From an uncultured candidatus Porisulfidus sp. (GTDB taxonomy: Bacteria; Pseudomonadota; Gammaproteobacteria; Poriferisulfidales; Poriferisulfidaceae), in contig OZ251520.1 in the NCBI GenBank assembly GCA_965242985.1, positions 860,492 to 924,491 of the forward strand: 64,000 nucleotides of DNA, written 5' to 3'. This document shows, piece after piece, positions 11,801-42,365 of the stretch. Numbering within the stretch: the first letter of the stretch is position 1; each line of letters opens with the position of its first letter. Both the position numbers and the translations under genes were made by a program. The notes under the pieces are model-generated. The model did not search any database. It saw nothing but the letters and a program-made list of their open reading frames with translations, and was not told the DNA's origin.

Positions 11801-11967
11801 TGACCGCCCGCGCGACCGGACGCCGCGGCTGAATCCCGCCGGAAACCGGCCCGTTCGGGCCGATTCCGCGCCGGAGGAGCGCGGCCTGCCGGGGGCGATT
11901 CCAAGCCGTGTTATACTCTGACCCAGACCGCGCCGCCGGCGCGCCGGAAGATCAGGAGGGAATCCCC

Positions 11968-12573
11968 ATGGCCTCGACCGACTGGAGCCTGAAAGGCAAC
12001 TACTTCGAATCCTGCACCTGCGAACTCATCTGCCCCTGCATCTGCCTGCGTCCGCCGACTCCCGGCACCTGCACCGCGCTGCTCGGTTGGCACGTCGACG
12101 AGGGCCATCTGGACGGCACCCGGGTCGACGGCCTCAACGTCTCCATGTTCCTGCAGGCTCCCGGCCTGCTCACCGAAGGCAACTTCAAGGTCAGCGTCTA
12201 TGTCGACGAGCGCGCCGACGAGGCGCAGTACCAAGCGCTGTCGGAGCTCTACCAGGGCCAGCACGGCGGACACTTGGGCGTGGTCGCCAGCTTGGTCGGC
12301 GAAGTGGTGAGCGTCAAGCAGATGCCCATCGAATATTCCGTCGACGGCAAGGTGCGCAGCCTCAAGGTCGGCGACATCGCCAGCAGCCAGGTCACCGAGA
12401 TCGAGGGCGGCGACGGCGGCCCGGTGACGGTCAGCAATCCGCCGCTGGCCATCGCCCCCGGACACGACATCACCATCAGCACCACCGATCACGTGCGCTA
12501 CAACGACAACGGCATCCAGCACGAGCATCAGGGGACGGTCAGCTTGGCCTCCGCGTTCACCTATGCGCCCTGA
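11968..12573 (+). CDS. DUF1326 family protein
   Basis: MASTDWSLKGNYFESCTCELICPCI... is the characteristic DUF1326 N-terminus. Good RBS (aggagg) 7 nt upstream of the ATG. The ORF track starts 20 codons earlier. Confidence 0.65.
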   Translation: MASTDWSLKGNYFESCTCELICPCICLRPPTPGTCTALLGWHVDEGHLDGTRVDGLNVSMFLQAPGLLTEGNFKVSVYVDERADEAQYQALSELYQGQHGGHLGVVASLVGEVVSVKQMPIEYSVDGKVRSLKVGDIASSQVTEIEGGDGGPVTVSNPPLAIAPGHDITISTTDHVRYNDNGIQHEHQGTVSLASAFTYAP

Positions 12574-19956: not shown

Positions 19957-20126
19957 GGGCGCGGGGGCGGCGGGCGCATTTTAACTGCGGCGCATCGGCC
20001 GGCCCAAGCCGGCGCGAATTATATAGGGCGGCAAGTCTGGTATGCTGAACCGTGCTTGGTCATCGCCGCGTGCGGCGGCCGGGACATCGCGGCGACCGCC
20101 GCCGCAAACTGCCGGGGAGAAGGCAA

Positions 20127-20387
20127 ATGGAAAGGGGAGCCGAAAACGATCTGGTGACCAAGGCGTTCCTTGCCCAGGCGCTGAGAGACTTGGAGCGGCA
20201 CATGGATCAGGGGGTGAGGGATTCCGTGAGCGATTCGGAGAAGCGCATGACTCAGCGCTTGGAGAGCACCATCGCCAACGCCCAAGCCAGAACCCTCAAC
20301 TGGATGGTCGCGATCTTTCTCGCGGCGACCGCGCTGGTCGGCACGTCCGTGGGCGTGTTCACCATGGTCGTGCTCGCGCGCTCCTGA
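20127..20387 (+). CDS. Small tail-anchored membrane protein (coiled-coil N-terminus, C-terminal TM)
   Basis: MERGAENDLVTKAFLAQALRDLERHMDQ...TLNWMVAIFLAATALVGTSVGVF. GGAG RBS upstream. Paralog of the next ORF. Confidence 0.45.
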   Translation: MERGAENDLVTKAFLAQALRDLERHMDQGVRDSVSDSEKRMTQRLESTIANAQARTLNWMVAIFLAATALVGTSVGVFTMVVLARS

Positions 20388-20409
20388 TTTGCCGCCCGTC
20401 GAAAGCCGG

Positions 20410-20634
20410 ATGGGATGCGATCCTGTTGCCGGGGCGCCTCTTGTCCGGGAGCCGGACAGCATTGAGAAGATTGTGGCCCGCTGCGGGGACCGCATGGCCT
20501 GCCGCATCGAGGAAATCATTGCCGAATCCCAAACCCAGATCGTCCGGTGGATGGTCGCGATCTTTCTCGCCTCGACCGCGCTGGTCGGCGCGGCCGTGAG
20601 CGCGCTCGTCCTGTTCCTGACCGGACGCCTCTAG
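20410..20634 (+). CDS. Small tail-anchored membrane protein, tandem paralog
   Basis: ...RMACRIEEIIAESQTQIVRWMVAIFLASTALVGAAV. The shared WMVAIFLA(A/S)TALVG TM segment with the upstream gene is the basis. Start uncertain (TTG 20389 / ATG 20410 / ATG 20491). Confidence 0.4.
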   Translation: MGCDPVAGAPLVREPDSIEKIVARCGDRMACRIEEIIAESQTQIVRWMVAIFLASTALVGAAVSALVLFLTGRL

Positions 20635-20707
20635 CGCCGCCGCCGGCCCGGCGGCCGGCCGCGGCCGTTTCTTATAATGGCGGCCCCGCACGCGTGGGGC
20701 CCGCGGC

Positions 20708-21265
20708 ATGGTGCAGCAGCTTCCGAACCTGATCAGCGTCCTGCGCCTGCTGCTGGTGCCGGGGTTCGCGCTGGTGCTGCTCGAGCAGCGCTTCGACGCG
20801 GCGCTGGCGCTGTTCCTGCTGATGGGCCTGTCGGACGGCCTCGACGGCTACCTGGCGCGGCGCCTGGACGCGGCCAGTTCGCTGGGCGCGGCGCTGGACC
20901 CGCTGGCCGACAAGGTCATGCTCATGACGGCGTTCGTGCTGCTCGGCCACCTGGAGCTGCTGCCCGCCTGGCTGGTGGTGCTGGCGGTGGGCCGCGACGT
21001 GCTGATCGTCGGCGGCGCGCTGCTGCTGTACCTGTTCCGCCCGGGCGGCATGGTGCGCACCGCGGCGATCGGCAAGGTCAACACTTTCCTGCAGATCGTG
21101 CTGGTGCTGGCGGTGCTGGCGCAGCAACTGCTGCCGCTGCCGCCGCTGGCGCTGGCGCAGGCCGCGCTGGTGGCGGGCGCGGCGGTCACCGCCGTCGCCA
21201 GCGGCCTGTGGTACGCGCTGGTCTGGAGCGGGCTGTCGGCGCGGCTGCGGGCGCTCGGCCGGTGA
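20708..21265 (+). CDS. CDP-alcohol phosphatidyltransferase family protein (PgsA-like)
   Basis: DGLDGYLAR(x)...G(x3)D(x3)D motif and multiple TM helices. Confidence 0.75.
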   Translation: MVQQLPNLISVLRLLLVPGFALVLLEQRFDAALALFLLMGLSDGLDGYLARRLDAASSLGAALDPLADKVMLMTAFVLLGHLELLPAWLVVLAVGRDVLIVGGALLLYLFRPGGMVRTAAIGKVNTFLQIVLVLAVLAQQLLPLPPLALAQAALVAGAAVTAVASGLWYALVWSGLSARLRALGR

Positions 21266-21963
21266 GCCAGCAGCTCCTGCCGCTCGGCGCCAATCCGCGG
21301 CACACGTTCGAGAACTTCTGCGCGGACCGGCCGGCCGCGGCGCTGGCCGCGCTGCGGGAGCTGCCGGAGCGCGGCGGCCTGCTGTGGCTGTGCGGCCCGC
21401 CGGGCGCGGGCAAGTCGCACCTGCTGCAGGCGGCCTGCCAAGACGCCCGCGCGGCCGGGCGCGCCGCGGCGTACCTGCCGCTGGCGCGGCGGGAGCTGGG
21501 GCCGCCGGCGCTGCGCAACCTGGAGCGGACGGCGCTGGTCTGCCTGGACGACCTCGACGCGGCGCTCGGCGACGCGGCCTGGGAGCGCGCGCTGTTCGCG
21601 CTGCTCAACCAGGCGCAGGCGAACGGCTCGGCGCTGGCGCTGGCGGCGCGCGCGCCGGCGGCGGACGCGCCGGCGGCGCTGCCGGACCTGCACTCGCGGC
21701 TGCGCGGGGCGGCCCTGTTCCGGCTGCGGCCGCTGGCGCCGGAGCGGCACCCGGAAGCGCTGCGCCGGCGCGCCCGCAGCCAGGGCTACGAGCTGTCGGC
21801 GGCGGCGGTGGCCTACCTGCAGAGCCGCGCCGACCGCGACCTGGGCACGCTGTGCCCGCTGCTCGACCGGCTGGAGGAGCGGGCCTTCCGCGAGCGCCGG
21901 AAACTGTCCGTGCCGCTGCTGCGCGAGCTGCTGGAGCGGGAGGACGGGGCGCGGGCACACTAG
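21262..21963 (+). CDS. hda: DnaA regulatory inactivator Hda
   Basis: GTG start overlapping the pgsA stop. Walker A GPPGAGKSHLLQAAC and DnaA-domain-III-like architecture. Classic position next to purM. Confidence 0.75.
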   Translation: MSQQLLPLGANPRHTFENFCADRPAAALAALRELPERGGLLWLCGPPGAGKSHLLQAACQDARAAGRAAAYLPLARRELGPPALRNLERTALVCLDDLDAALGDAAWERALFALLNQAQANGSALALAARAPAADAPAALPDLHSRLRGAALFRLRPLAPERHPEALRRRARSQGYELSAAAVAYLQSRADRDLGTLCPLLDRLEERAFRERRKLSVPLLRELLEREDGARAH

Positions 21964-21973
21964 CCGGCGGATC

Positions 21974-24631
21974 ATGCGCGGAAGACACCGGACGGGGGCC
22001 GCGGCGGCGGGGTTCTGCGCCGGCCTGGCGCTGGCGGGCGGCGCGCCGGGCGCGGCCGGGACGGCCGCGGCGGCCGAGGCGGTGGAGGAGATCCGGGTCA
22101 CCGGCTCGCGCCGCGCGCACCGCGCCGGCGGCGACACGCTGGCGCCGCTCGACATCCTCACGGCCCGCGACTTCGCCGCGCAGGGCCGCCGCGAGACCAC
22201 CGATATGCTGCGCGCGCTGATCCCGTCGTACAACGTAAGCGCGCAGCCGATCAACTCCGCCGCCACCCTGGTGCGCCCGGCCAACCTGCGCGGGTTGTCG
22301 CCGGATCAGACCCTGGTGCTGGTCAACGGCAAGCGCCGGCACCGGGCGGCGGCGATCACGTTCTTCGGCAGCGGCCTCGCCAACGGCGCGCAGGGGCCGG
22401 ACGTGGGCGCGATCCCGGCGATCGCCCTCAAGCGGGTCGAGGTGCTGCGCGACGGCGCCTCGGCGCAGTACGGCTCGGACGCCATCGCCGGGGTGCTCAA
22501 CTTCGTGCTGAAGGACGCGCCCGCCGGCGGCGAGGCGGCGGCGGAATTCGGCCGGACCTACGCCGGCGACGGCGAGCAGCGCCGCCTGGCCGGCAACGTC
22601 GGCCTGCCGCTCGGCGACTCCGGCTTCCTCAACCTGAGCGGCGAATGGCAGGACCGCAGCCCGACCGTGCGCAGCGTGCAGCGCGCCGACGCGCAGGCGC
22701 TGATCGACGCCGGCAACGCGGCCGTGGAGCGGCCGTACGCGCAGGTCTGGGGGCAGCCGGACCTGGACGACGACTGGAAGGGCTTCGCCAACCTGGCCGC
22801 CGCGCTCGGCGGCGGCGCCGAGTTCTACGCCTTCGGCAACCGCTCCGAGCGCGCCACCGAGGGCGGCTTCTACTTCCGCAGCCCGGACGACCGCGACGGC
22901 GTGTTCTCGACCGCCGCGGAATTGGGGGGAGTGGCCGTGCCGGCGCGCCTGGTCGGCGACCGGGAGCCGGGCAATGCCGCCGCCTGTCCCGGCGACGTGG
23001 TCATCGCGGCGCGGCTGAGCCCGGCGCAGCGCCAGGCGCTGGCCGCCGCCGGCATCGACCCCGCGGCGCGCGAGGCGCGGCGCCGGCGGGAGGTCGCGGC
23101 CGCCGCCGACTGCTTCCTGTTCAACGAGCGCTTCCCGGGCGGCTTCCGGCCGAAGTTCGGCGGCGAACTGACCGACCAAGCCGCGGTCGCCGGGGTGCGC
23201 GGGGAGTTGCCGGGCGGGCTGCGCTACGACCTGAGCGCGTCGCGCGGCGAGCACGAGATCGAGTTCTTCATGCGCGACTCCATCAATCCCAGCCTCGGGC
23301 CGGATTCGCCGGGCTCCTTCCGGCTCGGCTCCTACGCCCAGACCGAGCGGGGCCTGAACCTCGACCTGGCGTACCCGCTCGCCATCGACGCGTTCGCCTC
23401 GCCGGTGAACGCGGCCTTCGGCCTGGAGTGGCGCGAGGCGGAGTTCCAAGTGCGCCAGGGCGAGCCGGATTCCTGGCGCGCCGGGCCCTACGCGGAGCAG
23501 GGCTTCGGCATCGGCGCCAACGGCTTCTCGGGCTTCGGCCCGGCGGTCGCCGGCCGCTGGGAGCGCGGCAGCCGCGCGCGCTACCTGGACCTCGAGGGCG
23601 ACGTCGCGCCGGAACTGACGCTGGGCGCCGCGCTGCGCTGGGAGGACTTCGACGGCTTCGGCACCGCCGCCACCTGGAAGCTGTCCGGCCTGTACCGGCT
23701 GCATGAGGCGCTGCGCCTGCGCCTGAGCCGGCACACGGGCTTCCGCGCGCCGACCGTCGGCCAGCAGCGGGTCACCGACATCACCACCGCCTTCGCCCGG
23801 CGCGACGACGGCGTCCTGGCGCTGGTGCAGCGCGGCACCGTGCAGCCCGGCACGCCGCTGGCGCGGGCGCTCGGCGCCCGCGCGCTGCGCCCGGAGAAGT
23901 CCGATTCGTTCACCGCCGGCGCGCTCCTGGAGCTGGGCGCGGCGGAAGTCACGCTCGACTACTTCTACATCGCGGTCGACGACCGGGTCACCCAGTCCCG
24001 CAGCTTCGACTTGGCGCGGGAGACCGGGCCGGGGCGGGCGTTCGCGGACCGCGCCGCGCTGGACGCGGCGCGCGCCGCCTCCGGCCTTGCGGACAACACG
24101 GACCTGGTCAGCGTGCGCTACTTCGTCAACGACTTCGACACCCGCACCCGCGGCGCGGACCTGACGCTCCGGGCGCCGCTGGCGCTGGCGGGCGGCGGCG
24201 ACACCGAACTGACGCTGGCGGCCAACTGGACCAAGACCCGGGTGGTCCGCCGCGACCCGGCCACGGTCTCCGCCAAGCGGGTGGCGCAGCTGGAGCGCAG
24301 CCTGCCCCGGGTCCGCGGCCACGCCGCGCTGCGGCACGACGCCGAGCGCTGGCGCGCGCTGGCGCGCGTCCACTACTACGGCAACGCGCAGGAACACCAC
24401 GTCGACAGCGCCGACCACCTGTTCAAGCACGGCGCCGAGGTGACCGTCGACGTGGAGCTGGGCTGGCGCCCGCGGCCGGGCCTGGAGCTGGCGCTCGGCG
24501 CGGAGAACCTGTTCGACAACCTGCCGGACCGGAATCCCTACGCCCGCAACTGGGGCTCCAAGTACGCCGAGAACGCGCCCTACGGCACCCGCGGCGGCTT
24601 CTACTACCTGCGCGCGCGGCACGAATTCTGA
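21974..24631 (+). CDS. TonB-dependent receptor (paralog 1 of 3)
   Basis: Signal peptide; plug-domain motifs IRVTGSR, LRGLSPDQTLVLVNGKR; ~800-aa beta-barrel ending with the terminal aromatic ...YYLRARHEF. Confidence 0.85.
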   Translation: MRGRHRTGAAAAGFCAGLALAGGAPGAAGTAAAAEAVEEIRVTGSRRAHRAGGDTLAPLDILTARDFAAQGRRETTDMLRALIPSYNVSAQPINSAATLVRPANLRGLSPDQTLVLVNGKRRHRAAAITFFGSGLANGAQGPDVGAIPAIALKRVEVLRDGASAQYGSDAIAGVLNFVLKDAPAGGEAAAEFGRTYAGDGEQRRLAGNVGLPLGDSGFLNLSGEWQDRSPTVRSVQRADAQALIDAGNAAVERPYAQVWGQPDLDDDWKGFANLAAALGGGAEFYAFGNRSERATEGGFYFRSPDDRDGVFSTAAELGGVAVPARLVGDREPGNAAACPGDVVIAARLSPAQRQALAAAGIDPAAREARRRREVAAAADCFLFNERFPGGFRPKFGGELTDQAAVAGVRGELPGGLRYDLSASRGEHEIEFFMRDSINPSLGPDSPGSFRLGSYAQTERGLNLDLAYPLAIDAFASPVNAAFGLEWREAEFQVRQGEPDSWRAGPYAEQGFGIGANGFSGFGPAVAGRWERGSRARYLDLEGDVAPELTLGAALRWEDFDGFGTAATWKLSGLYRLHEALRLRLSRHTGFRAPTVGQQRVTDITTAFARRDDGVLALVQRGTVQPGTPLARALGARALRPEKSDSFTAGALLELGAAEVTLDYFYIAVDDRVTQSRSFDLARETGPGRAFADRAALDAARAASGLADNTDLVSVRYFVNDFDTRTRGADLTLRAPLALAGGGDTELTLAANWTKTRVVRRDPATVSAKRVAQLERSLPRVRGHAALRHDAERWRALARVHYYGNAQEHHVDSADHLFKHGAEVTVDVELGWRPRPGLELALGAENLFDNLPDRNPYARNWGSKYAENAPYGTRGGFYYLRARHEF

Positions 24632-24726
24632 ATCTCCGGGGCGATGCCGGAACTTCCGGGATTCCCGCCCCGCGCGCGTTCCGGTGCTACAATGGCGCGC
24701 CGTTTTTTTGAGAGGATTGCGGGCAT

Positions 24727-27403
24727 GAACCGAGGGCATTCCACCATCGAGAAGCTCGGCCTGGCGGGGCTGATTCCCGCCTTGGCCATCGCCGTTTCCG
24801 GCGCGCCCGCGCCCGCGGCCGGGGCCGAGGCGGACGAAATCGAGGAGATCAAGGTCACCGGCTCGCGCCGGGCGCACCGCACCGGCGGCGACACGCTGGC
24901 GCCGCTCGACATCATCTCCGGCAGCGATTTCTCGCGCCAGGGGCGCGGCGAGACCACCGACATGCTGCGCACGCTGATCCCGTCGTACAACGTCAACGCG
25001 CAGCCGATCAGCGACGCCGCCACGCTGATCCGGCCGGCCAACCTGCGCGGGCTGTCGCCGGACCAGACGCTGGTGCTGGTCAACGGCAAGCGCCGGCACC
25101 GCGCCGCGGTCATCAGCTTCCTCGGCGGCGGCGTCTCCTCGGGCGCGCAGGGGCCCGACGTCAGCGCCATCCCGGCGATCGCCCTGAAGCAGGTCGAGGT
25201 GCTGCGCGACGGCGCCTCGGCGCAGTACGGCTCGGACGCCATCGCCGGCGTGATCAACTTCGTGCTGCGGGACGAGGCCGACGGCGGGGTGGTGGAGACC
25301 AAGTTCGGGCAGACCTACTCGGGCGACGGCGAGCACCGGCAGCTGTCCGCCAACCTCGGCCTGCCGCTCGGCGGCGCCGGCTTCCTCAACCTGAGCGGCG
25401 ACTGGAAGGAGCGCGACCCGACCGTGCGCAGCGTCCAGCGCGCCGACGCGCGGGCGCTGCTCGCCGCCGGCAACGCCGACGTGGAGCAGCCCTACGCGCA
25501 GATCTGGGGCCAGCCGGACCTGAACGACGACTGGAAGGGCTTCGTCAACATGGCCGCCGCGCTCAGCGACGAGGCCGAGTTCTACGCCTTCGGCAACTAT
25601 TCCGAGCGGGAGACGGAGGGCGGCTTCTTCTTCCGCAACCCCGACAGCCGCGGCGGCGTCTTCTCGACCACCGCGGCGCTGGGCGGGGAGACGGGGCTGC
25701 CGGCGCGCCTGGTCGGCACCCGGCCGGGCAGCGGTTCCGCCTGTCCCGACGACGTGGTCATCGCGGCGCGGCTGAGCCCGGCGCAGCGCCAGGCGCTGGC
25801 CGCCGCCGGCATCGACCCCGCGGCGCACGAGGCGCAGCGCCGGCGCGAAATCGCGGCGGACGCCGGCTGCTTCCTGTTCAACGAGCGCTTCCCGGGCGGC
25901 TTCCGGCCGAAGTTCGGCGGCGACCTGACCGACGAGGCGCTGACGGCCGGCCTGCGCGGCGAGTTCGCCGGCGGGCTGAGCTACGACGTCAGCGTGTCCT
26001 ACGGCGAGAACGAGGCCGAGTTCTTCATCCGCGACACGATCAACGCCAGCCTCGGGCTGGCCACGCCGACCTCGTTCCGGCTCGGCTCCTACACGCAGAC
26101 CGAGGAGGGCCTCAACCTCGACTTCGTCTACCCGCTGACGATCGACGCGTTCGCCTCGCCGCTGAACGTGGCCGCCGGCCTGGAGTGGCGCAACGAGGAG
26201 TTCGAGGTGCGGCAGGGCGAGCCGGATTCCTGGCGCGCCGGGGACTACGCGCAGCAGGGCTTCGGCGTCGGCGCCAACGGCTTCTCCGGCTTCGGCCCGT
26301 CCAACGCCGGCAAGTGGGACCGCTCGAGCGAATCGCGCTACCTCGACCTCGAGGCGGACGTCCGCGAGGACCTGACGCTGGGCGCCGCGCTGCGCTGGGA
26401 GGACTTCGACGACTTCGGCACCACCACCACCTGGAAGCTGTCCGGCCTGTACCGGGTGCACGACCAGCTGCGGATGCGCGCCGCCTGGCACACCGGCTTC
26501 CGGGCGCCGACCGTCGGCCAGCAGAACATCACCAACCTGACCACCGCGTTCCAGGGCACGGCCCTGGTGCAGCGCGGCACCATCCGGCCGACCACGCCGC
26601 TGGCGCAGGCGCTGGGCGGCACGCCGCTGGAGCCGGAGAAATCCGACTCGTTCACGATCGGCGCGATCATGGACATCGCCGCGGCGGAGGTGACGCTGGA
26701 CTACTTCTACATCGCGGTGGACGACCGCATCCTGCAGACCCAGTCGTTCGTGCTGAGAGATTTGGTCGCCGGCAGCGGCGAGTGCGGAGGGAATGATCAA
26801 CCGGCCTGCGTCTGGGCCAATCAGGCGGCGCTGCAGGCGGCGCGGGAGGCGTCCGGCTTCGCCGCGAACCTGGATCTGAGCAACGTCCGCTTCTTCACCA
26901 ACGACTTCGACACCCGCACCCGCGGCCTCGACCTGGTGGCCACGATGCCGCTCGAGTTGCTGGACAGCGGCGATTCCGAGCTGACGGTGGCGGCCAACTG
27001 GACCAAGACCCGGGTCGTGCAGGCCGATCCCGATCTGGTCGACCAAAAGCGCATCGACCTGCTCGAGAAGAGCCTGCCGCGGTTCAAGGGCAACGCCACG
27101 CTGACGCACGACGCCGAGGACTGGCGGGCGCTGGTGCGCGCCAACTACTACGGCAACGCGTGGGAATACCACGTCGACTCGAACGACCTGCTGGTCAAGT
27201 ACGGCGCCGAGGTCACCTGGGATCTCGAGTTCGGCTACCGCCCGCTGCCGGAGCTGGAGCTGGTGCTGGGCGCCGACAACGTGTTCGACAACCGGCCGGA
27301 CGAGAATCCTTACGCCTTGATCGTCGGCTCGCGCTATCCCGAGAGCGCGGCCATGGGCAGTCAGGGCGGCTTCTACTACATGAAAGCGAGTTACGAATTC
27401 TGA
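24727..27403 (+). CDS. TonB-dependent receptor (paralog 2 of 3)
   Basis: ~85% aa identity with paralog 1 in the plug region; ends ...YYMKASYEF. Start set at MNRGH because the upstream ATG (24692) overlaps a TACAAT -10 box. Confidence 0.8.
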
Positions 27404-27417
27404 GGGGCGGGGCAGGC

Positions 27418-30162
27418 ATGGGGCCGGGCCGGCCGCCGCCGCGCCGCGCGCGCGGCGGCCTGTTGCTGGCGCTGACGGCCGCGGCCGCGGGCGGGCCGCC
27501 GGCGGCCGCGGCGGAGGCGGGCGCCGAAGCGCCGGAGGAGATCCGGGTGACCGGCTCGCGCCGGGCGGTGCGCTCCGCGGGCGACGCGCTGGCGCCGCTC
27601 GACATCATCTCCGGGGCCGACTTCTCGCGCCAGGGCGAGGGCGACACCAACAGCATGCTGCGCGCGCTGGTGCCCTCGTACAACGTCGGCGAGCACCCGA
27701 TCGACGACGGCGCCACGCTGGTGCGCCCGGCCAACCTGCGCGGCCTCGCGCCCGATCAGATGCTGGTGCTGGTCAACGGCAAGCGCCGGCACCGGGCGGC
27801 GGTGATCACGTTCTTCGGCGCCGGCGTCGCCGACGGCGCGCAGGGGCCGGACGTCAGCGCCATCCCGGCGATCGCCCTGAAGCAGGTCGAGGTGCTGCGC
27901 GACGGCGCCGCGGCGCAGTACGGCTCGGACGCCATCGCCGGGGTGCTCAACTTCGTGCTGAAGGACGCGCCCGCCGGCGGCGCGGTGGAGACCAAGCTCG
28001 GCCAGACCTATGCCGGCGACGGCGAGCAGCGGCAGCTGTCGGCCAACCTCGGCCTGCCGCTCGGCGACGGCGGCTTCCTCAACCTGAGCGGCGACTGGAA
28101 GGAGGTCGAGCCGACGGTGCGCAGCGTGCAGACCGACGGGGCGCGCAAGCTGCTCGCGGCGGGCCGCGACGGCGTCCGGCAGCCGTACGCGCAAATCTGG
28201 GGGCAGCCGGACATCCGCGACGACTGGAAGGGCTTCCTCAACCTGGCGGCGCCGCTGAGCGAACGCGCCGAGTTCTACGCGTTCGGCAACTACGCCGAAC
28301 GGGAGACGGAGGGCGGCTTCTACTTCCGCAACCCGGACGACCGCCCCGGCGCCTACCGCTGGGACGCGCCGACCGGCCGCGGCGGGGAGACGGCGAAGGC
28401 GCGCATCGTCGTCGACCTGACCGACGACGGCCGGGCCGACTGCCCCGCGGGCTCCGGCGTCAACGGCGCGGCGCCGGTCTACATCGCGGCCGAGCTGACC
28501 CCGGAGCAGGCGGCCCACCTGTTCCCCGGCCCGGGCGGCGGCGCGGCGGCGCTGGAGCGGGCGCGGGCTGCCGAGCGGGCGCAGCTGGCCCGGATCACGG
28601 GCCCGGGCAACGAGAACTGCTACATCCTCAACGAGCTGCTGCCGGACGGCTTCACGCCGCAGTTCGGCGGCGCGCTGAGCGACTACGCGCTGGCGGGCGG
28701 CGTCCGCGGCGAGCTCGAGGGCGGCCTGGCCTACGACCTCAGCGTGGCCAAGGGGCAGAACGCGGTGGACTTCTTCATCCGCGACACCGTCAGCACCAGC
28801 CTCGGCCCGGACACGCCGACCGCCTTCGAGCTCGGCTCCTACATCCAAGAGGAGGTCGACGTCAACCTCGACCTGAGCTACCCGCTGGAGGTGGCGGCGT
28901 TCGCCTCGCCGCTCAACGTCGCCGGCGGCTTCGAGTGGCGCGAGGAGCGCTTCGAGGTGCGCGCGGGCGAGCCCGATTCCTGGCGCGCCGACCGCTTCGT
29001 CGCCGCGCAGGGCTTAGGCGTCGGGGCCAACGGCTTCTCCGGCTTCGGCCCCGAGATCGCGGGCCGCTGGGACCGCTGGAACATCGCCCTGTACCTGGAC
29101 TTGGAGGCCGACGTCAGCGAGCGGCTGACGCTGGGCGGCGCGCTGCGCTGGGAGGATTTCAGCGACTTCGGCACCACCGCGAACTGGAAGCTGTCGGGCC
29201 TGTACCGGCTGACCGGCAACCTGCGCGTGCGCGGCTCCTACAACACCGGCTTCCGCGCGCCGACCGTCGGGCAGCAGCGGATCGCCAGCATCGTCACCGC
29301 TTTCGGCACCGGCGCCGGCGGGCAGACCTCGCTGACGCAGCGCGCCACCGTGCAGCCGACCTCGCCCCTGGCGGCGCCGCTGGGCGGGCGGGCCCTGGAG
29401 CCCGAGGAATCGGCGGCCTACGCGTTCGGCGTCGGTGCCGACCTGGGGCCGCTCGAATTGACGGCGGACTTCTTCGCCATCGAGGTGGAGGACCGCATCG
29501 CCCAGTCGCAGTCGTTCACGCTGAGCGACTTCGTCGCCGGCGGCCGCTGCGAGGCGGACGCCTCCTGCCTGTGGGCCGACCGCGCCGCGCTGCAGGCGGC
29601 CCGGGAGGCGTCCGGCTTCGGCCGCAACGCGGACCTGCAGCGGATCCGCTACTACCTGAACGCGTTCGACACCCGCACCCGGGGCCTCGACGTGGTGGCC
29701 TCCCTGCCGCTGGCGCTGCGCGCCGCCGGCGAGTCGGAGCTGGCGTTTGCCGGCAACTGGACCAAGACCGAGGTGGTGCGCCACGACCCCGGCGCCGTGA
29801 GCCGCAAGCGCATCGCGCAGCTGGAGAAGGGCCTGCCCCGGGTGCGCTTCAACGCCGCGCTGACGCACGCGGAGGGCGACTGGCGCGCGCTGCTGCGGGC
29901 CAACTACTACGGCCCCGTGCATCTGTTCCACGCCGACGACGCGAACAAGCCCCTGCAGTCCGGCGCCGAAGTCACCTGGGACGTGGAGTTCGGCTACCGC
30001 CCGGCGGCGGACCTGGAGCTGGTGTTCGGCGCCGACAACGTGTTCGACAACTACCCGGACCGGAATCCCTACGCCGGCGAGCACGGCTCCAAGTACCCGG
30101 AATACGGGCCCATGGGCACGGCCGGGGGCTTCTACTACCTGAAGGCGCGCTATGAATTCTAG
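27418..30162 (+). CDS. TonB-dependent receptor (paralog 3 of 3)
   Basis: MGPGRPPPRRARGGLLLALTAAAAG... signal, same plug motifs, ends ...YYLKARYEF. Confidence 0.8.
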   Translation: MGPGRPPPRRARGGLLLALTAAAAGGPPAAAAEAGAEAPEEIRVTGSRRAVRSAGDALAPLDIISGADFSRQGEGDTNSMLRALVPSYNVGEHPIDDGATLVRPANLRGLAPDQMLVLVNGKRRHRAAVITFFGAGVADGAQGPDVSAIPAIALKQVEVLRDGAAAQYGSDAIAGVLNFVLKDAPAGGAVETKLGQTYAGDGEQRQLSANLGLPLGDGGFLNLSGDWKEVEPTVRSVQTDGARKLLAAGRDGVRQPYAQIWGQPDIRDDWKGFLNLAAPLSERAEFYAFGNYAERETEGGFYFRNPDDRPGAYRWDAPTGRGGETAKARIVVDLTDDGRADCPAGSGVNGAAPVYIAAELTPEQAAHLFPGPGGGAAALERARAAERAQLARITGPGNENCYILNELLPDGFTPQFGGALSDYALAGGVRGELEGGLAYDLSVAKGQNAVDFFIRDTVSTSLGPDTPTAFELGSYIQEEVDVNLDLSYPLEVAAFASPLNVAGGFEWREERFEVRAGEPDSWRADRFVAAQGLGVGANGFSGFGPEIAGRWDRWNIALYLDLEADVSERLTLGGALRWEDFSDFGTTANWKLSGLYRLTGNLRVRGSYNTGFRAPTVGQQRIASIVTAFGTGAGGQTSLTQRATVQPTSPLAAPLGGRALEPEESAAYAFGVGADLGPLELTADFFAIEVEDRIAQSQSFTLSDFVAGGRCEADASCLWADRAALQAAREASGFGRNADLQRIRYYLNAFDTRTRGLDVVASLPLALRAAGESELAFAGNWTKTEVVRHDPGAVSRKRIAQLEKGLPRVRFNAALTHAEGDWRALLRANYYGPVHLFHADDANKPLQSGAEVTWDVEFGYRPAADLELVFGADNVFDNYPDRNPYAGEHGSKYPEYGPMGTAGGFYYLKARYEF

Positions 30163-30231
30163 GGGCGTTCCGCGCCGCGCCCAGCGCGCCCGGCGGTCCC
30201 GGCCGAAGCCGCCGGTGTCAGCCGCCGCTGG

Positions 30232-30454
30232 GGTATAATCCCGCCCGCTTTCGGACTGCAACCGCTTCAGTCCGCGAAGCGAACTGCGCCGAACTGTCTC
30301 ACTGACATGGAATATCCCGCCGCATCGGCCCTGAATCGCGCCTGCGCCGCGCGTGGTCCTATCGCGCGCAGCCCTAATACGGGGGGGGGGGTCTAAAAGC
30401 CTTTCCGCGCGCCGGACGTCCGGCGCTCCGGCCCGGCCGTCTCGGCCGGAACCG
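30232..30454 (+). promoter_or_regulatory. Leader/promoter module copy C (TATAAT 30234-30239, GC hairpin, G11 tract 30381-30391) upstream of the intact autotransporter
   Basis: Shares tataatcccgcccgctttc, ctgaatcgcg-hairpin, c(c/t)(g/t)aatac-Gn and tccgcgcgccgg blocks with copies A and B. Confidence 0.6.
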
Positions 30455-33400
30455 ATGACCGGCGCGCGTTGCGCGCGCGGGCTGGCGGCGGCGTTGCTGG
30501 CCGCGGCGCTGCTGCCGGCGTCGCCGGCGCAGGCGCAGCACCTCGCCTATCAGGTGACCCTGAGCAAGAGCGTGATCACCGAAGGCGAGTCGGTCACGGT
30601 GGGCCTGAGCTGCACCTCGTATTGCGGCAACAACTTGATAACAACCGGCGGCGCCCAGACGGAGACGACTACCAAGGCGGATATCGCGATCAGTCCCACC
30701 ACTTACAGCAACGTTACGCTGTCCAGCAACGTGCGGCTGACCATGAACTCGAACAATTCGAGCAACCCTTGGGCGGGCACGGTGACGATTTCGACCACGG
30801 TCGACACGGCGGACACCGGGCACAGGACGGTGACGGTATCGGGGACCCAAGACCGCACTGATCCAAACAACGCGTGGGCCGGGGTGGGTACCAGCGCCAT
30901 CACCTCGGCCACGCTGACGATTCTCGACGCCCAGGCGCCGCAGGTGACGGTGTCGCTGTCGCCGGCGACGATCAACGAGAGTGGCGGAACCATAACGACG
31001 GTGGTGCAGGCGACGGTGCCGACGGGCTCCGAGCCGACCACGGCTCTGGCGGTGACGCTGTCGGCGGCGCCGGTGAGTCCGGCGACGTCGGCGGATTTCA
31101 CGACGAGCTGGTCGGGAGCCACGACGACGTTGACGATTCCGGCGAACGGCACCACCAGCGGGCTCGCGTTGATCACGGCGGTGAACAACAACCTGGACGG
31201 CCCGGAGACCAAGCAGGTGACGGTGAGGGGAGCGGTGGCGACGACCGTCGACTACCGGTCCGGCTCCGCGACGCTGACGATCAACGACGACGACATGACG
31301 GACCTGACGGTGGACCACAGCGGCGGTTCGACCACGGTGGCGGAGGGTTCGACGGCGACGGACGATTTCGAGGTGAGCCTGGCGAGCCAGCCGCGGTCGG
31401 TGGTGCAGGTGGCGGTGTCGGTGGTGAATGACTCGGACGGCACCCGCGAGTGCGAGGCGTCGGTGGACGACGGCGCGAACTACATCGCGTCCGGCAGCAC
31501 GGGGACGCTGACGTTCGTGCCGACGGCCGGCGAAATTTCGGGAGCCCAGACGGCCCTGTGGAGCACGGGGCAGAGGGTGAGGGTGCGGAGCGTGGACGAT
31601 GCCGCGGACGACGACGACCAGACATGCACGGTGCGGCTGAACCCGGCCAGCGTGCCGGCCTCGGGCGATACCAGATACCACAATTTGGCCGATGTCGACG
31701 TGTCGGTGACCGTCACCGACAACGACGTGCAGCCGACGCTGGCGCTGACGCCGCCCGCGATCGACGAGAGCGGGATGAACAACCGGGCGACGGTGACGGC
31801 GACGCTGGCGGATCCCGCGGCGTCGCGGGTGACGCTCACGGTGTCGGCGGCGCCGGTGAGTCCGGCGGTGGCGGGCGATTACAGCCTGAGCGGGAGCACG
31901 CTGACGATCGCGTCGGGCGCGACGACCAGCACGGGGACGGTGACGATCACGGCGGTGGACAACGCCGTGGACGCGGCGAACAAGACGGTGACGGTGTCGG
32001 CGACGTCGTCGGGCGGGAACACGGTGGCGCCGGCGGACGCGACGCTGACGATCCGGGACGACGACGGGCCGGGCCTGGACTTGTCGCCGACCGCGCTGTC
32101 GGTGGCCGAGCCCGGGGAGGAGGGCTCGTTCGCGGTGAATCTGGCGTCGCAGCCGACGGCGGCCGTGACGGTGACGGCGTCGCGGCCGGCGGCGGACGGC
32201 ACGGAATGCGAAGTGAAGAGCGGCGCGGGCGCGTACGGCGCCTCGACGACGTTGACGTTCACGGCCTCCACTCCGGCCACCCTGTGGAGCGCGCCGCAAA
32301 CGGTGATGGTGCGGGCCATTGACGACCCCAGCGCTGATGCCGATCAGCCGTGCGATATCACGCTGTCGGTCAGCAGCACGGACACGAACTACAACACGCT
32401 GGGGGATGAGACGGTGTCGGTGACCGTGGTGGACGACGACACGGCGGGATTGACGCTGTCGAAGACCGAAGTGTCGACCAGCGAGGACGTCGCCGACGCG
32501 GCCGCGAACGCGGACGATTTCACGGTGCGCCTGGGGACGCTGCCATCGGCGGTCGTGACGATCGCGATCAGCAGCAGCGACACGGGCGAGGCGGCGGTTT
32601 CTCCAGCGAGCCTGAGGTTCGGGACGGCGGCGGACAACAGCGACCCCGCCAACCCGGTGTTCCTGTGGAGCGATCCGCGGACGGTGACGGTGACGGGCGT
32701 GGACGACAACGACCCGGACGGCTCGCGGGACTACACGATCACGCTGAATCCGAGCAGCACGGGCGACAGCGACTACGACGGCTTGGATGACGTGCTGGTG
32801 TCGGGCACGAACGAGGACGACGACGCAGTGACGGTGACGCTGTCGGTGTCGGCGGCGGACGGGCGGCTCGCGGAGGGCGAATCGGCGGCGGTGACGGCGC
32901 GCCTCGGCCGTTCGGTGGGGGCGGTGACGACGATCCGGGTGTCGGCGGCGGCGGGGACGGGCGCGTCGGCGGCGCACTTCCGGCTGAGCGAGAACCGGAC
33001 GCTGACGGTGGCGGCGGGGTCGACGGCGAGCACGGGGACGGTGACCATCACCGCGGTGGACGACGACGTGGACGGCCCGGAGACCCGGCAGGTGACGGTG
33101 TCGGGGTCGGCGAGCGGCGGCCAGAGGGCGCTGGATCCGGACTCCTTGACGCTGACGATCGCGGACGACGACGCGGCGCCGCGGGCGTCGCTGATCTTGA
33201 CGCCAGCGGCGATCGACGAGAGCGCGCCGGACAACGAGGCGCGGGTGACGGCGGCGCTGAGCCATCCCTCGAGCATGGCGACGACGGTGGCGGTGTCGGC
33301 CGCGGCCGGGGCGACGGTGGGCGCAGACAACGTCCTCTCGATCCCCGCGGGGGCGACGGCGAGCGCGGATGCGGTGACGCTGACGGCGGTGGACGACGAG

Positions 33401-37528: not shown

Positions 37529-38143
37529 CTAGCGGCGCCCGCCTTCCCGGATCCGCGCCGGCAGGGAAAGGCACTGCCGGGCGCGGTCTTTCCCGATCAG
37601 GGCGAGCGTTTTCTCGTGGTATTCCTCGGGAACTTTCATGCGTCCCAGGCGCAGGGCGTTGTAGACGGCTTGCGCTTGTCCCCCGCGGCCGAGGGCGGTT
37701 TCCGCCTGCCGGCAGGTCAGGATGTCCATCGTGCTCGCCGTCGGCAGGCGCGGGAAGCGTTCCCTGCAGATCCTCAGGCCCTTGCTTTCGTCGATCACCG
37801 CCGCCCCGCCGCGTTCCAGCGCGCAAGCGATGACGGCGGCTTCGCCGTCGTCTAAGGATCTTTCGGTCAGGTCGTTGAAGTGCCGCAGGCCGATTTCTCT
37901 CAAGGCCGCGACTGCGAGCATTCCCCGTTTCGTCCAAGCGGGAAAATCGCTGGCGCGCACTGCGCCCTTTTCTTGTCCCACCTCGAATTCCTGCAGCACC
38001 TCTTCGACGATCATGAGGATGCCCGGCAACGCCGCCAGAAGTTCCTCGAAGCTTCCCGTCGCGCAGAGATTGATGAGGACGCTGGTGTCGACGACCAGCG
38101 GCCCCGCGAAGTCAGGCAGCGAGTTCCAGCGCGTCATCCGCAT
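37529..38143 (-). CDS. PIN-domain protein (putative toxin/RNase)
   Basis: LVVDTSVLINL N-terminal PIN motif. 32-nt overlap with the upstream XRE/ImmA gene. Confidence 0.6.
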   Translation of the reverse strand: MRMTRWNSLPDFAGPLVVDTSVLINLCATGSFEELLAALPGILMIVEEVLQEFEVGQEKGAVRASDFPAWTKRGMLAVAALREIGLRHFNDLTERSLDDGEAAVIACALERGGAAVIDESKGLRICRERFPRLPTASTMDILTCRQAETALGRGGQAQAVYNALRLGRMKVPEEYHEKTLALIGKDRARQCLSLPARIREGGRR

Positions 38144-39287
38144 CCCCTCGTTCGGCTTCCATGCCGATCAGCATGTCGCGCAATTCGATGCGCTTGAGGT
38201 TCAGCAGGCGCGCCAGTTGCCCCTCGCTCAGTAGTTCTTTCTCCCACGCCTCCAGCGCCATCAATCCGAGGCGCAACGGAACGATGCGGTCCGCGTCCGT
38301 CTTGATCGCGTTCTCCGCAGCAAGGTCATTGGCAATTTCCCGAGCCGGTTCGCTGCCGCCGCTGGCGCTTTCCGTGAACCACTTCCAAGTGCCGACCGGG
38401 GCCAGCGAAAGTTCTTCGAGCTGCAGCGCCATCGCTTCCGGCGGCACGCCGAATTCGCTCGCCAGCAGCGCGACATGCTGTCGCGTGAGTTTCGACATCC
38501 CTGCTACGGTCTGGCGGAACTGGCGTTCCATCGCCCGCAGCGGCATCAGGAAAGTCTTGGCGAACGCGTCGGCGTAGCGTCCCGGCCGCGAAGCGTCGCG
38601 GCCGTTCCGGTACAGCACGTCCGGCTGCCGCCGGTTCGACACGAAATGCCCCAGTTCGCGGGCGCAGGCGAACGCGCGCCGGTCCGGCGGGTGGTTCGCG
38701 TTCAGGAGCAGGCAGCCGCCGACCCGTTCGCGGTAGGCGAACAGCCCGGACAGCCGGGTGTCGATCCGCCGCGTATGGACGCGCATGCCGAATTCCAGTT
38801 TCAGAACGGCTTCCGGGTCGCGCACCGGCGCCATGCCGAGGCCCAGCCGCTGCCGGAGCTCGGTGGCATCTTCCGCGGCTTGGGCGCGCACGTCCGCGCC
38901 GGCCAACAGCGGCCGTTCCGGCGGCGCGCTGTGCGCGTGCTCGATGCCCAGCACGTTCTCCAGTTCCGCTTCCGCCTGCACCAGCACCGTCAGCAGTTTG
39001 GCCGCTTCGTGCGCTTGGCGGTCCCGGGGCGCGTGCCGACGGAACTCGGAGATCAGGTCGACATGCACCGCTTCGGCGCGTCGCAGAGCGTTGACCGATG
39101 TCTGGTACAGCCGCGCCAATTGCTGGAGTTCCGCCAGTTGGATGCGGCGCCGGCCCTGTTCAATGGCGACCAGGGTCGTGCGCGCGACCCGGATGCGGGC
39201 CGCCGCGTCCGCCTGCGTGATTTGCTCCGCTTCCCGGGCGCAGCGCAGCCGGGCGCCGAGCTCCTCGGGGGTGATGGGGGAATGCAT
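38112..39287 (-). CDS. XRE-family HTH + ImmA/IrrE-type zinc metallopeptidase fusion protein
   Basis: N-terminal HTH (LRCAREAEQITQADAAARIRVARTTLVAIEQGRR), central HEXXH-like ARELGHFV (DUF955/ImmA). Start taken at MHSPIT; the ORF track extends further upstream to 39491. Confidence 0.6.
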   Translation of the reverse strand: MHSPITPEELGARLRCAREAEQITQADAAARIRVARTTLVAIEQGRRRIQLAELQQLARLYQTSVNALRRAEAVHVDLISEFRRHAPRDRQAHEAAKLLTVLVQAEAELENVLGIEHAHSAPPERPLLAGADVRAQAAEDATELRQRLGLGMAPVRDPEAVLKLEFGMRVHTRRIDTRLSGLFAYRERVGGCLLLNANHPPDRRAFACARELGHFVSNRRQPDVLYRNGRDASRPGRYADAFAKTFLMPLRAMERQFRQTVAGMSKLTRQHVALLASEFGVPPEAMALQLEELSLAPVGTWKWFTESASGGSEPAREIANDLAAENAIKTDADRIVPLRLGLMALEAWEKELLSEGQLARLLNLKRIELRDMLIGMEAERGDADDALELAA

Positions 39288-39489
39288 GCGCGGTCCCTTG
39301 CAGTTGATGTCAGGATAGATGCAGGAAGAATCATAACATGTTGGAAAAACGCGGGTATCAGGGAAACCGCCGCAGTACGCCGAGTGTTCCGCATCCTCGC
39401 GGCGGCGCGTCATGTCGGAGTCCTGCGGAGTCTGATCCCGCGGCAGCTGGTATGCTGGAATCCCATCCTCGGAGACCACGCGGAAGAGC

Positions 39490-39984
39490 ATGTCCGTCTA
39501 TTTCGTGCGGGCCAAATCCGGCCGGCTGTTTTCGGCGTTCATGGAGCGGGGCGTCGTCGCGCTGGGCGGACTTACCGATGCGCCCGACATCGGCGACCTG
39601 CGGCGGCACCTGGATAGCCGCGAGGCTTTGTGCGCGCGCGTCCGGGAATGGAGTCCGAATCGAGGGAAGCGCGAGACGAACTACACGACCCGGGTCCTGT
39701 GGCTGCTGGCGGGGGAAATGCAGGTCGGAGACTGGGCGCTGACGTACGACGGGCAGGGTTCCTACGCGCTCGGCGCAGTCACCGGCGAGTACCGGTATGA
39801 GCCGGCATGGGATGAAGAGCCGTTGCGCCACCCGCATGCGCGGGACGTGGCTTGGCGGGAGGAGCGGATTCCGCGGGCGGCGCTGTCGTCGCAGACGCAA
39901 CAGGAGCTGAGTCGGCACGATTCCATCATCGGGCTGAACTACGCGGCGAGCCGCGAGGTCTTGGAGCGGGCGGGCGCGGCCTGA
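39490..39984 (+). CDS. Hypothetical protein (164 aa), divergent from the ImmA-like gene
   Basis: ORF with no family assignable by eye (MSVYFVRAKSGRLFSAFMERGVVALGG...). Confidence 0.35.
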   Translation: MSVYFVRAKSGRLFSAFMERGVVALGGLTDAPDIGDLRRHLDSREALCARVREWSPNRGKRETNYTTRVLWLLAGEMQVGDWALTYDGQGSYALGAVTGEYRYEPAWDEEPLRHPHARDVAWREERIPRAALSSQTQQELSRHDSIIGLNYAASREVLERAGAA

Positions 39985-40017
39985 TCCCCGGCGGCGGCGT
40001 CCCAGTCCGTTCGCTGG

Positions 40018-40056
40018 TATGATGAATGCCGGAAGCGGGCCGGACAGCCGCCGCCT
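40018..40056 (+). repeat. Direct repeat, left copy (duplicated rnpB promoter/5' end, attL-like)
   Basis: gtatgatgaatgccggaagcgggccggacagccgccgcct. Its counterpart at 42009-42047 is ctatgatgcctgccggaagcgggccggacagccgccgcct. Confidence 0.65.
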
Positions 40057-40227
40057 TGGAAGTTGGCCGCAATGGAAAGCGTAAAGCCGGGGTGTTCCAG
40101 ATGTCTGCTTTTTCGCGTCCGGGGAAAACAATTCATTTTGGAGTCTCGAACTGAGGATCTGCTCAAGAATTTCAGTGTGAAATCTGAATTGCCTGATGGG
40201 AAAACCTCTTCCCATCAATAGCATTAG

Positions 40228-41247: not shown

Positions 41248-41269
41248 AATAACTGCCCGGATTATCGCT

Positions 41270-41989: not shown

Positions 41990-42008
41990 AATGCGTGCTC
42001 TTGGAGTC

Positions 42009-42047
42009 TGATGCTATGATGCCTGCCGGAAGCGGGCCGGACAGCCG
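42009..42047 (+). repeat. Direct repeat, right copy (native rnpB promoter/5' end, attR-like)
   Basis: See 40018-40056. Confidence 0.65.
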
Positions 42048-42365
42048 CCGCCTGCGGGCGGAGGAAAGTCCGGGCTCCACAGGGCGGGATGCCAGGCAAC
42101 ACCTGGGGGGCGCGAGCCCACGGCCAGTGCCACAGAAAACATACCGCCGGGCGCAGGCCCGGTAAGGGTGAAAAGGTGCGGTAAGAGCGCACCGCGCGGC
42201 TGGCAACAGGCGCGGCAGGGTAAACCCCATCCGGAGCAAGACCCAATAGGGGGGCGATCGCGTGGCCCGCGCGGCTCCCGGGTAGGTCGCTAGAGCGGGG
42301 CGGCGACGTCCCGCCCAGATGAATGGCTGTCCTCGACAGAACCCGGCTTACAGGCCCGCTTCCCC
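42028..42365 (+). ncRNA. rnpB: RNase P RNA, bacterial type A
   Basis: Collinear with E. coli M1 RNA: gaagc.ggacag..gccgc, GGAGGAAAGTCCGGGCTCCA, GGTAAGGGTGAAA..GTGCGGTAAGAGCGCACC, ACAGAACCCGGCTTA. Confidence 0.85.

Follow-up and report, generated by a model that had tools for sequence, protein, structure and literature searches.

Gene order and protein features behind hda

Three genes for TonB-dependent transporters (TBDTs), here called T1, T2 and T3, lie on the + strand of the window, which is the whole stretch of 64,000 nucleotides analysed. T1 (21974..24631) encodes 885 aa, T2 (24725..27403) encodes 892 aa and T3 (27418..30162) encodes 914 aa. The last is the earliest-branching paralogue in our tree. 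All three are intact, and each presents the Pfam domains Plug and TonB_dep_Rec_b-barrel. A previous sequence-only reading of this DNA had described three head-to-tail receptors of about 890 aa, separated by 15-95 bp. Both observations hold, with measured gaps of 93 nt (T1-T2) and 14 nt (T2-T3). The start of T2 is probably ATG 24725, which has a GAGAGGA ribosome-binding site and gives an 892-aa product identical to database protein P0001. Likewise, T3 probably starts at ATG 27418 (914 aa, as in P0022), and the upstream GTG 27160 of the ORF list was not preferred.

Two + strand genes precede the array. The first gene of the unit encodes a CDP-alcohol phosphatidyltransferase (pgsA-like; 20708..21265; Pfam PF01066, E = 1.2e-32). 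The second is a homologue of the DnaA-inactivation ATPase gene hda (21262..21963), identified by Pfam Hda_lid (E = 4e-14) and by its frame plot. The GTG start of hda overlaps the preceding stop by 4 nt, and T1 follows after 10 nt. The array is anchored downstream of hda in every relative, and the position of the pgsA-like gene is identical across all of them. An autotransporter gene follows T3. If it begins at ATG 30455, the start of a good signal peptide, the gap is 292 nt and holds a G11 tract at 30381-30391, as the earlier estimate of a gap of about 290 bp with a G-tract had anticipated. The ORFs of the window that were scanned with Pfam have housekeeping roles otherwise, and comprise lnt, tldD/pmbA, purMN, hda, the dcw cluster and secA. 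Genes for Fur, ECF sigma/anti-sigma, TonB or ExbBD are absent among the Pfam-scanned ORFs of the window, in agreement with the former statement that no regulator, TonB/ExbBD or substrate-processing gene is nearby. A minus-strand ORF of 1855 aa (21605-27172) and other antisense ORFs were discarded. They are artefacts of a high-GC sequence with few stops, and the GC3 signal is missing from their frames.

The plug matches PF07715 with E values of 4.3e-17 (T1), 3.3e-16 (T2) and 7.4e-15 (T3), all exceeding the gathering score. The predicted structure is a 22-strand beta-barrel enclosing the plug (pLDDT 89.2). By inspection, the N-termini are rich in Ala, Gly and Leu, as signal peptides are, and the three proteins end in EF. 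The plug and C-terminal motifs reported before are present, and we observed EEI(R/K)VTGSR, LRGL(S/A)PDQ(T/M)LVLVNGKR and a final YEF or HEF. T1 shows the full set: signal peptide, TonB-box-like EEIRVTGSR, plug, barrel and C-terminal HEF. The segment EEI(R/K)VTGSRR, which comes roughly 5-8 residues after the mature N-terminus, is by resemblance a putative TonB box. With plug, 22-strand barrel, signal peptide, putative TonB box and C-terminal Phe all found, T1-T3 belong to the TBDT superfamily.

A TATAAT box (20673..20678, + strand) lies 30 nt upstream of the pgsA-like gene. It is the probable promoter of a unit running through hda into T1. The window contains 7 copies of this hexamer where 0.3 would be expected, and a TATA(AT)-type box occupies the equivalent place in the assemblies L002 and L071. 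Since hda ends 10 nt before T1, the latter has no room for a promoter of its own; in L071 the two genes even overlap by 4 nt. A promoter of T1 could be inside hda. The T1-T2 spacer contains the extended -10 box TGCTACAAT (24685..24693, + strand), the probable promoter of T2-T3. Within it is the TACAAT (24688-24693) already noticed in front of the second copy, which proves to be a conserved promoter-like box. The pattern TGnTAnAAT is rare in this DNA of 75% GC (3 observed in the window against 0.14 expected), and the box is kept before the T2-type copy in L002, L070, L071, L076 and L077. We infer from these boxes two transcription units, with T1 on the pgsA-like/hda transcript and T2-T3 served by their own extended -10 promoter. 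A scan of 20000-31000 with the sigma-70 consensus gave no promoter match. A 'terminator' proposed by the scanner at 24684-24698 was not taken as such; its place is ahead of the start of T2, after the TACAAT box. The region 3' of T3, once folded, had no hairpin better than those of shuffled sequences.

Age of the copies and loss of T1'

The sequence-only reading described the copies as highly similar, with about 85% identity in the plug. This is correct for the plug, although the measured identity is slightly lower (78-83%). It is not for the whole length, where T1 and T2 share 70%, T2 and T3 63-65%, and T1 and T3 60-61%. Conversely, the orthologues of each copy are 82-93% identical across five assemblies (L002, L070, L071, L076 and L077), with 83-89% for T1. 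In a neighbour-joining tree on distances, not maximum likelihood, every array copy falls in one clade (100/100 bootstraps). Inside it, a given copy clusters with its orthologues from the five assemblies and not with the neighbouring copies. On this tree and these identities, the duplications predate the divergence of the window organism from its sequenced relatives. As judged from the sequences, an uncharacterised TBDT subfamily has expanded in this lineage to give the array, as gene families commonly do.

The bacteria that carry the array are related, with small (~1.9 Mb) and very GC-rich genomes. A comparison of copy number among relatives, proposed in the sequence-only reading, gives 0, 1+1, 3 or 4 receptors at the hda site. 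A genome of Candidatus Porisulfidus (L073), the nearest relative with a name, has none downstream of hda. In the intermediate relative L074, an FMN reductase gene separates two receptors, which are the sister group of the array clade (100/100). Three copies are present in the window, L002, L070 and L077, and four in L071 and L076. The fourth paralogue type, T1', branches below all T1 orthologues. In L077 the spacer retains a degraded 3' relic resembling GFYYARAR...EF. Furthermore, the T1-T2 spacer of the window can be aligned to the one that separates T1' and T2 in L076. From the tree and these spacers, T1' is as old as the other paralogues and was deleted in the window lineage. We also asked whether the deletion had turned T1 into a chimera of T1 and T1'. 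This was rejected: T1 is T1-type end to end, except for a T2-derived patch.

These data bear on the proposal, made from the sequence alone, of a recent tandem amplification selected for uptake capacity. The genes are indeed adjacent, co-oriented and tightly spaced, with similar plugs. However, the copies differ at 30-40% of residues, the paralogue types form separate clades older than the related lineages, and the copy number fell in the window. Selection for gene dosage is extremely improbable because the copies are old and diverged, each has its own orthologues, and T1' has been lost. The data speak neither for nor against antigenic diversification, the alternative given in the same reading. 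It had also been considered that the triplet might be a strain-specific duplication of a single receptor with siderophore-type neighbours. The triplet is not confined to one strain, and no siderophore genes were found at the orthologous or homologous loci examined. So, the recent amplification gives way to a dated, stepwise history at one site, with zero, 1+1, four and then three receptors. A single ancestral gene just 3' of hda would have undergone serial tandem duplication with the branching order (T3,(T2,(T1,T1'))). The later deletion of T1' would then have left three copies in the window lineage.

The copies might also be redundant. In a small symbiont-type genome that evolves slowly, relaxed selection would let them linger by chance while they are lost one after another. 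T1' is already gone in several assemblies, and the DN/DS between orthologues (0.30-0.58) is not very low, a value hard to interpret with third codon positions of about 97% G+C, which compress DS. Nevertheless, the remaining copies are free of stops and frameshifts in all six assemblies, although the proteins have diverged by 11-18%. The plug and the family-invariant residues are kept, and a genome of this size is expected to drop 8 kb of useless DNA. We consider redundancy decidedly unlikely.

Surface loops and a gene-conversion tract in L3

The differences among the three proteins are not uniform. Identical positions amount to 72% in the plug, 55% in the strands and 47% in the surface loops. 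The most diverged loops, L3, L4, L8 and L10, have only 26-38% of positions identical in all three copies. In the predicted structure L3 is the largest surface loop (97 residues, two helices). It is flanked by a cysteine pair that is nearly invariant (at least 90% of 56 aligned sequences).

The longest exact match between T1 and T2 is the core of a T2-to-T1 gene-conversion tract. It consists of 77 nt at 22993..23069 (+ strand), identical to 25750-25826. The converted region, about 22960-23170, encodes part of L3 according to the loop assignment from the predicted structure. In this segment T1 shows T2-type characters, with 89-92% identity to T2 types compared with 67-70% to T1 orthologues. It is the only conversion tract found. 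Exact plug matches between T1 and T3 (72 nt) and between T2 and T3 (60 nt) were rejected as conversion, as strong protein constraint and the extreme GC3 can give rise to them.

This pattern could suggest an array for surface variation, in which varied loops evade phage, host recognition or bacteriocins and conversion shuffles them. The loops are the most divergent parts, and the tract falls between the near-invariant cysteines of L3. Signals between strains are mixed for T1, which in L077 is only 83% identical to that of the window (T2 93%, T3 90%). The lineage also has G11-G15 tracts before other surface-protein genes. Against this reading, there is a single tract, and the window shows no homopolymer or repeat switch ahead of T1-T3. 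Orthologous loops are well kept between assemblies: for loops of more than 6 residues (L2-L5, L7-L11), the within-type invariance is 0.66-0.87. Moreover, surface loops diverge faster than the rest as a normal pattern in any TBDT family. We regard surface variation as rather unlikely.

We favour, as the probable explanation, that T1-T3 are functional TBDTs from serial tandem duplication, with several copies kept for split ligand roles. Each protein would bind its ligand through the surface loops. TonB-ExbBD, assumed to be encoded elsewhere in the genome, would power the movement of the ligand beyond the plug, to the periplasm. The copies would be kept for related but different ligands, or for different affinities, and not for dosage. 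Such a division of labour is our guess from the conservation pattern, with conserved plugs and diverged L3, L4, L8 and L10. A bolder version, to which we give little credence, considers that this gammaproteobacterial lineage is related to the sponge-associated Candidatus Porisulfidus. The array would then be a symbiosis importer set for distinct host or community compounds new to TBDTs. One copy would be wired to the hda transcript so that uptake tracks the cell cycle, and conversion in L3 would tune ligand or surface specificity.

Substrate class and comparison with known receptors

No curated family points to a substrate class, in line with the sequence-only reading, which had named none. 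The best NCBIfam scores of T1-T3 are all far under the cut-offs. TonB-B12 (TIGR01779 / PRK10641) gives 68-83 bits with a cut-off of 599.7, and TonB-siderophore 34-50 bits with a cut-off of 223.5. The siderophore and haem families (TIGR01783, TIGR01785/6 and the FepA/CirA equivalogs) reach 34-76 bits at best with cut-offs of 223-1200. The search for Fur or riboswitch motifs upstream of 21974, suggested by the sequence-only reading, came out negative. For the Fur box, the region 19957-22100 gives 11/19 at best and the T1-T2 spacer 8/19. Upstream of 58 homologues, the match does not exceed 14/19 to the 19-nt consensus, which is enterobacterial and would overlook an operator of divergent sequence. 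With Rfam at gathering thresholds, the window yields only RNase P RNA and one tRNA, with no cobalamin or other riboswitch.

Other classes of receptor leave no signature either. T1-T3 consist of Plug and barrel only in Pfam, with the putative TonB box directly after the signal peptide. The STN signalling domain is absent from them, and no ECF sigma/anti-sigma pair, as found with FecA/FpvA-type transducers, is present among the scanned ORFs of the window. The adjacent SusD/RagB gene and the carboxypeptidase-regulatory-like N-terminal domain of SusC/RagA-type proteins were not found. We called and clustered the ORFs at 67 homologous loci, and no partner gene is conserved across them. No cluster of neighbours extends to more than 11 of the 67, and such clusters belong to single lineages. 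Halieaceae have puuA/puuB-like genes, Steroidobacter has a flavin amine oxidase, and Porisulfidus has a membrane protein with an unannotated ORF of about 220 aa. ABC importer, siderophore synthesis or haem genes are not conserved beside the homologues at these loci.

The proteins could still be classical metal-chelate or cofactor receptors (siderophore, haem or cobalamin), with the regulator or operator elsewhere or too divergent. The nearest structures and the best sub-threshold NCBIfam matches are BtuB, Cir, PirA/PfeA and haem receptors. In the databases the homologues have no more specific name than 'TonB-dependent receptor (plug domain-containing protein)' or, in some sources, 'iron complex outermembrane receptor protein', the latter a generic label. 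However, the scores, the Fur and riboswitch searches and the neighbouring genes all speak against it, and the likeness to solved receptors is mostly plug. We consider this quite unlikely. Because there is no Fur box, riboswitch, NCBIfam match near its cut-off or conserved partner gene, we regard a Fur-controlled siderophore, cobalamin and a SusD-type glycan as improbable ligands.

The locus draws attention to a widespread, wholly uncharacterised TBDT subfamily. Three or four diverged copies kept in such a small genome point to a family that matters to its bearer, and one on which a search for substrates could reasonably focus. The understanding of the mechanism of TonB-dependent transport is unchanged, and the practical value is modest.

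The nearest solved TBDTs are BtuB, Cir, PfeA/FepA/PirA and ShuA from E. coli, Pseudomonas, Acinetobacter and Shigella, with only 11-22% identity over the aligned part. The sequence matches are mainly confined to the plug. Compared with these chains, T1-T3 are about 150-300 residues longer and include the long L3, and their locus lacks a Fur box, a riboswitch and a cognate ABC system.

A precedent for many TonB-dependent receptor paralogues in one genome, and for receptors of this type that carry nutrients other than iron complexes, comes from a study of Xanthomonas and other bacteria of aquatic habitats (Blanvillain et al. 2007, PMC1790865). The receptors described there lie in carbohydrate-utilisation loci with enzymes and regulators. 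In contrast to those loci, T1-T3 have no partner genes and form a single tight array behind hda in a small genome. The literature searched on Porisulfidus, LS-SOB sponge symbionts and tandem TonB-dependent receptor paralogues held nothing specific to the T1-T3 family.

At least 7,999 significant TonB-dependent receptor homologues exist, and the best outside the lineage are 48-57% identical among the matches listed. Homologues of the same subfamily (37-60% identity) come from Kordiimonas, Maricaulaceae, Halieaceae, Steroidobacter, Microbulbifer, Candidatus Thioglobus, Opitutaceae and Candidatus Porisulfidus. Those outside the array are full-length and share the near-invariant residues of T1-T3, among them the two cysteines flanking L3. 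In 66 of 67 loci the homologue stands alone, and its neighbours differ from lineage to lineage, whereas T1-T3 stand as a tandem array.

Three diverged receptor genes behind hda

The region 21974-30162 contains three plus-strand genes, T1, T2 and T3, with products of 885, 892 and 914 amino acids. In each product, Pfam identifies a Plug domain and a TonB-dependent receptor barrel, and their membership of the TonB-dependent transporter (TBDT) superfamily is secure. The sequence-only reading had described this array, and the motifs it quoted are found in the sequence. The probable starts are ATG 21974, ATG 24725 (preceded by GAGAGGA) and ATG 27418. The database protein matching T2 (P0001) is 100% identical, and those matching T1 (P0013) and T3 (P0022) have the same lengths. 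All three are on one 1,877,398-bp contig. The window is about 75% G+C, with 93-99% G+C at third positions of coding frames.

The gaps measure 10 nt from the stop of hda (DnaA-inactivation ATPase homologue) to T1, 93 nt between T1 and T2, and 14 nt between T2 and T3. So, the short spacing reported between the copies holds. The most probable start of the autotransporter gene is ATG 30455, and a typical signal peptide begins there. This leaves 292 nt after T3, close to the gap of about 290 bp described before, with a TATAAT at 30234 and the expected G tract (G11, 30381-30391).

The copies had been called highly similar. This is true for the plug only (78-83% identity), since whole-length protein identity is 70% for T1/T2, 63-65% for T2/T3 and 60-61% for T1/T3. 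The plug is the most constrained portion of any TBDT.

Origin and age of the array

The array occupies the same site in the relatives, 3' of purN-purM, a divergent pgsA-like gene (CDP-alcohol phosphatidyltransferase) and hda. There are three copies in the window and in assemblies L002, L070 and L077, four in L071 and L076, and at least two in the stretch fetched from L075. For each window copy, every relative has one counterpart at 82-93% identity, and the other copies reach just 54-70%.

We built a neighbour-joining receptor tree with 100 bootstraps. All array copies form a single clade (100/100), in which four paralogue types split in the order (T3,(T2,(T1,T1'))). Their sister group (100/100) consists of two receptors at the hda locus of an intermediate relative, L074. 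There, hda is followed by one receptor, an FMN-reductase gene and the second receptor beyond. By TldD (72% identity), the nearest named relative is a Ca. Porisulfidus chromosome (taken as L030/OZ220480.1). It has the same flanks, with the FMN-reductase gene directly 3' of hda and no receptor. Therefore, receptor number at the hda site forms a series: zero in the Ca. Porisulfidus chromosome, one plus one in L074 and four in the clade, with three left in the window.

In the tree, T1' splits off before the T1 orthologues diverge from one another, and the three-copy genomes must therefore have lost it. The 189-nt T1-T2 spacer of L077 retains a degraded GFYYARAR...EF-like relic, and the window T1-T2 spacer can be aligned to the one between T1' and T2 in L076. 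Both support this loss. The orthologue and paralogue pattern, the tree and the T1' loss indicate that the duplications are old relative to the sampled lineages. A recent tandem amplification, as proposed earlier, is rejected by the phylogeny and copy numbers (three to four across relatives): orthologues share 82-93% identity against 60-70% for paralogues, and the paralogue types lie in separate branches.

A T1 segment (approximately 22960-23170) resembles T2. At its core, 77 nt match T2 exactly (22993-23069 = 25750-25826). The segment does not have the two-codon insertion found in all T1 orthologues, and it shares 89-92% identity with T2 types but 67-70% with T1 orthologues. We read it as a T2-to-T1 gene conversion.

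All array copies are intact in six assemblies. The dN/dS values are 0.30-0.58 for orthologues and 0.75-0.88 for paralogues, both overestimates because dS is compressed by extreme codon bias. The array thus arose behind hda through a stepwise series of old tandem duplications, in a small-genome, very GC-rich gammaproteobacterial lineage. Since then it has gone from four copies to three and undergone one gene conversion.

The source and its relatives are on contigs of about 1.88-1.91 Mb, one with a "_c" suffix that may mean circular. Ca. Porisulfidus is the nearest named relative by synteny too, and the name is attached to sponge metagenomes. A genome so small with about 75% G+C is unusual. This combination may deserve separate study. 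The DUF1326 gene, single in the window (11908-12573) and in three tandem copies in L075 (5552-8063), is another small tandem family of varying copy number.

Expression signals and surrounding DNA

AT-rich promoter hexamers are informative because they are very rare in this DNA. TATAAT occurs 7 times (0.3 expected) and TGnTAnAAT 3 times (0.14 expected). One TATAAT lies 30 nt 5' of the pgsA-like gene. This gene and hda share 4 nt, and 10 nt separate the end of hda from T1; in L071, hda and T1 overlap by 4 nt. From the box position and this spacing, T1 is probably read from the pgsA-like/hda transcript. A promoter-like box had been reported before the second copy. It is present (TGCTACAAT, 24685-24693), and each of the five relatives keeps a version of it (TGCTACAAT, TGCTATAAT or TGATATAAT) ahead of its T2-type copy, with a conserved GGAGAGGA-type ribosome-binding site 3' of the box. 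Thus, T2-T3 look like a second transcription unit. The L074 gap between hda and its single receptor has CTACAAT.

We looked for a regulator or substrate clue. The best Fur-box matches to the enterobacterial consensus were 11/19 upstream of the pgsA-like/hda/T1 unit, 8/19 in the T1-T2 spacer and at most 14/19 upstream of 58 homologues. Rfam found no riboswitch in the window. For Fur boxes and riboswitches, the suggested motif search upstream of the array was negative. The scanned window ORFs are housekeeping genes. Among them we found no STN signalling domain, SusD or ABC importer and, as already noted, no TonB/ExbBD, Fur or ECF gene.

The window has 3 G/C runs of at least 8 nt, against about 40 predicted by simple base composition. 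All are G11-G12 tracts (4601-4612, 4796-4807, 30381-30391). They belong to the leaders of the gene at 4653-9434 and of the autotransporter gene, both very large surface-protein genes, and they come after TATAAT-type boxes. A G11 tract about 70 nt 5' of the equivalent large gene is kept in L076 (21057-21067) and L077 (15687-15697). A G15 tract (20122-20136) precedes the second receptor gene of L074. Such tracts may serve the lineage's surface-protein genes as a leader element or in phase variation.

The purM/pgsA-like intergenic region (19957-20707) is about 750 nt long; in L002 and L071 it measures 59-85 nt. The additional DNA is lower in GC and has two small ORFs with near-identical C-terminal hydrophobic tails (...WMVAIFLA(A/S)TALVG...). 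L076 has one 99-aa ORF at this site; 110-114-aa ORFs near it in L071 and L075 are possibly related. The upstream side is otherwise constant among relatives, and the downstream side varies. From 30163 the window has the autotransporter, a tRNA and L25-pth-ychF. L077 (15466 onward) has a 1588-aa protein and then an AapJ-like amino-acid ABC system, which follows directly in L002 and L070 (15460 onward), and L071 (15451 onward) has prfB-lysS-sdh. Therefore, the array end is a synteny breakpoint. Further on, a low-GC island (37600-42000; minimum 40% at 40900-41199) adjoins the RNase P RNA gene (42029-42366). It has a DUF5131 (phage Gp37/Gp68-like) gene (41270-41989), a minus-strand HTH and M78 peptidase (ImmA/IrrE-like) gene (38112-39491) and ORFs with no Pfam match. 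The island is probably the product of horizontal transfer or what remains of a prophage.

Fold, working model and relation to known transporters

The AlphaFold model of T2, built on 56 homologues (pLDDT 89.2, pTM 0.87), has a plug, 22 strands and 11 outer loops. Loop L3 (residues 299-395) has a pair of helices, with a cysteine that is nearly invariant across the family on either side. The conversion tract is predicted to fall in the largest surface loop.

As the most likely working model, we favour three diverged importers, with moderate confidence. T1, T2 and T3 would each import related but distinct non-siderophore ligands with energy from TonB, and their expression would come from two units without a sensor. 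Their identity as TBDTs and the old age of the duplication are far surer than this model as a whole. The division of labour among them is much less certain.

T1-T3 could not be assigned to any characterised TBDT subfamily. Theirs is a widespread orphan family, with at least 7,999 significant homologues; among the matches listed, the best outside the lineage are 48-57% identical. We compared 67 loci from GTDB species representatives that carry homologues at 37-60% identity. All but one have a single copy, and the neighbour genes vary between lineages. The positions identical in all three window copies are 72% in the plug, 55% in the strands and 47% in the outer loops (26-38% in loops L3, L4, L8 and L10). 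This gradient is compatible with different ligand specificities, without proving them, and plug over strands over loops is the usual pattern of conservation in TBDTs.
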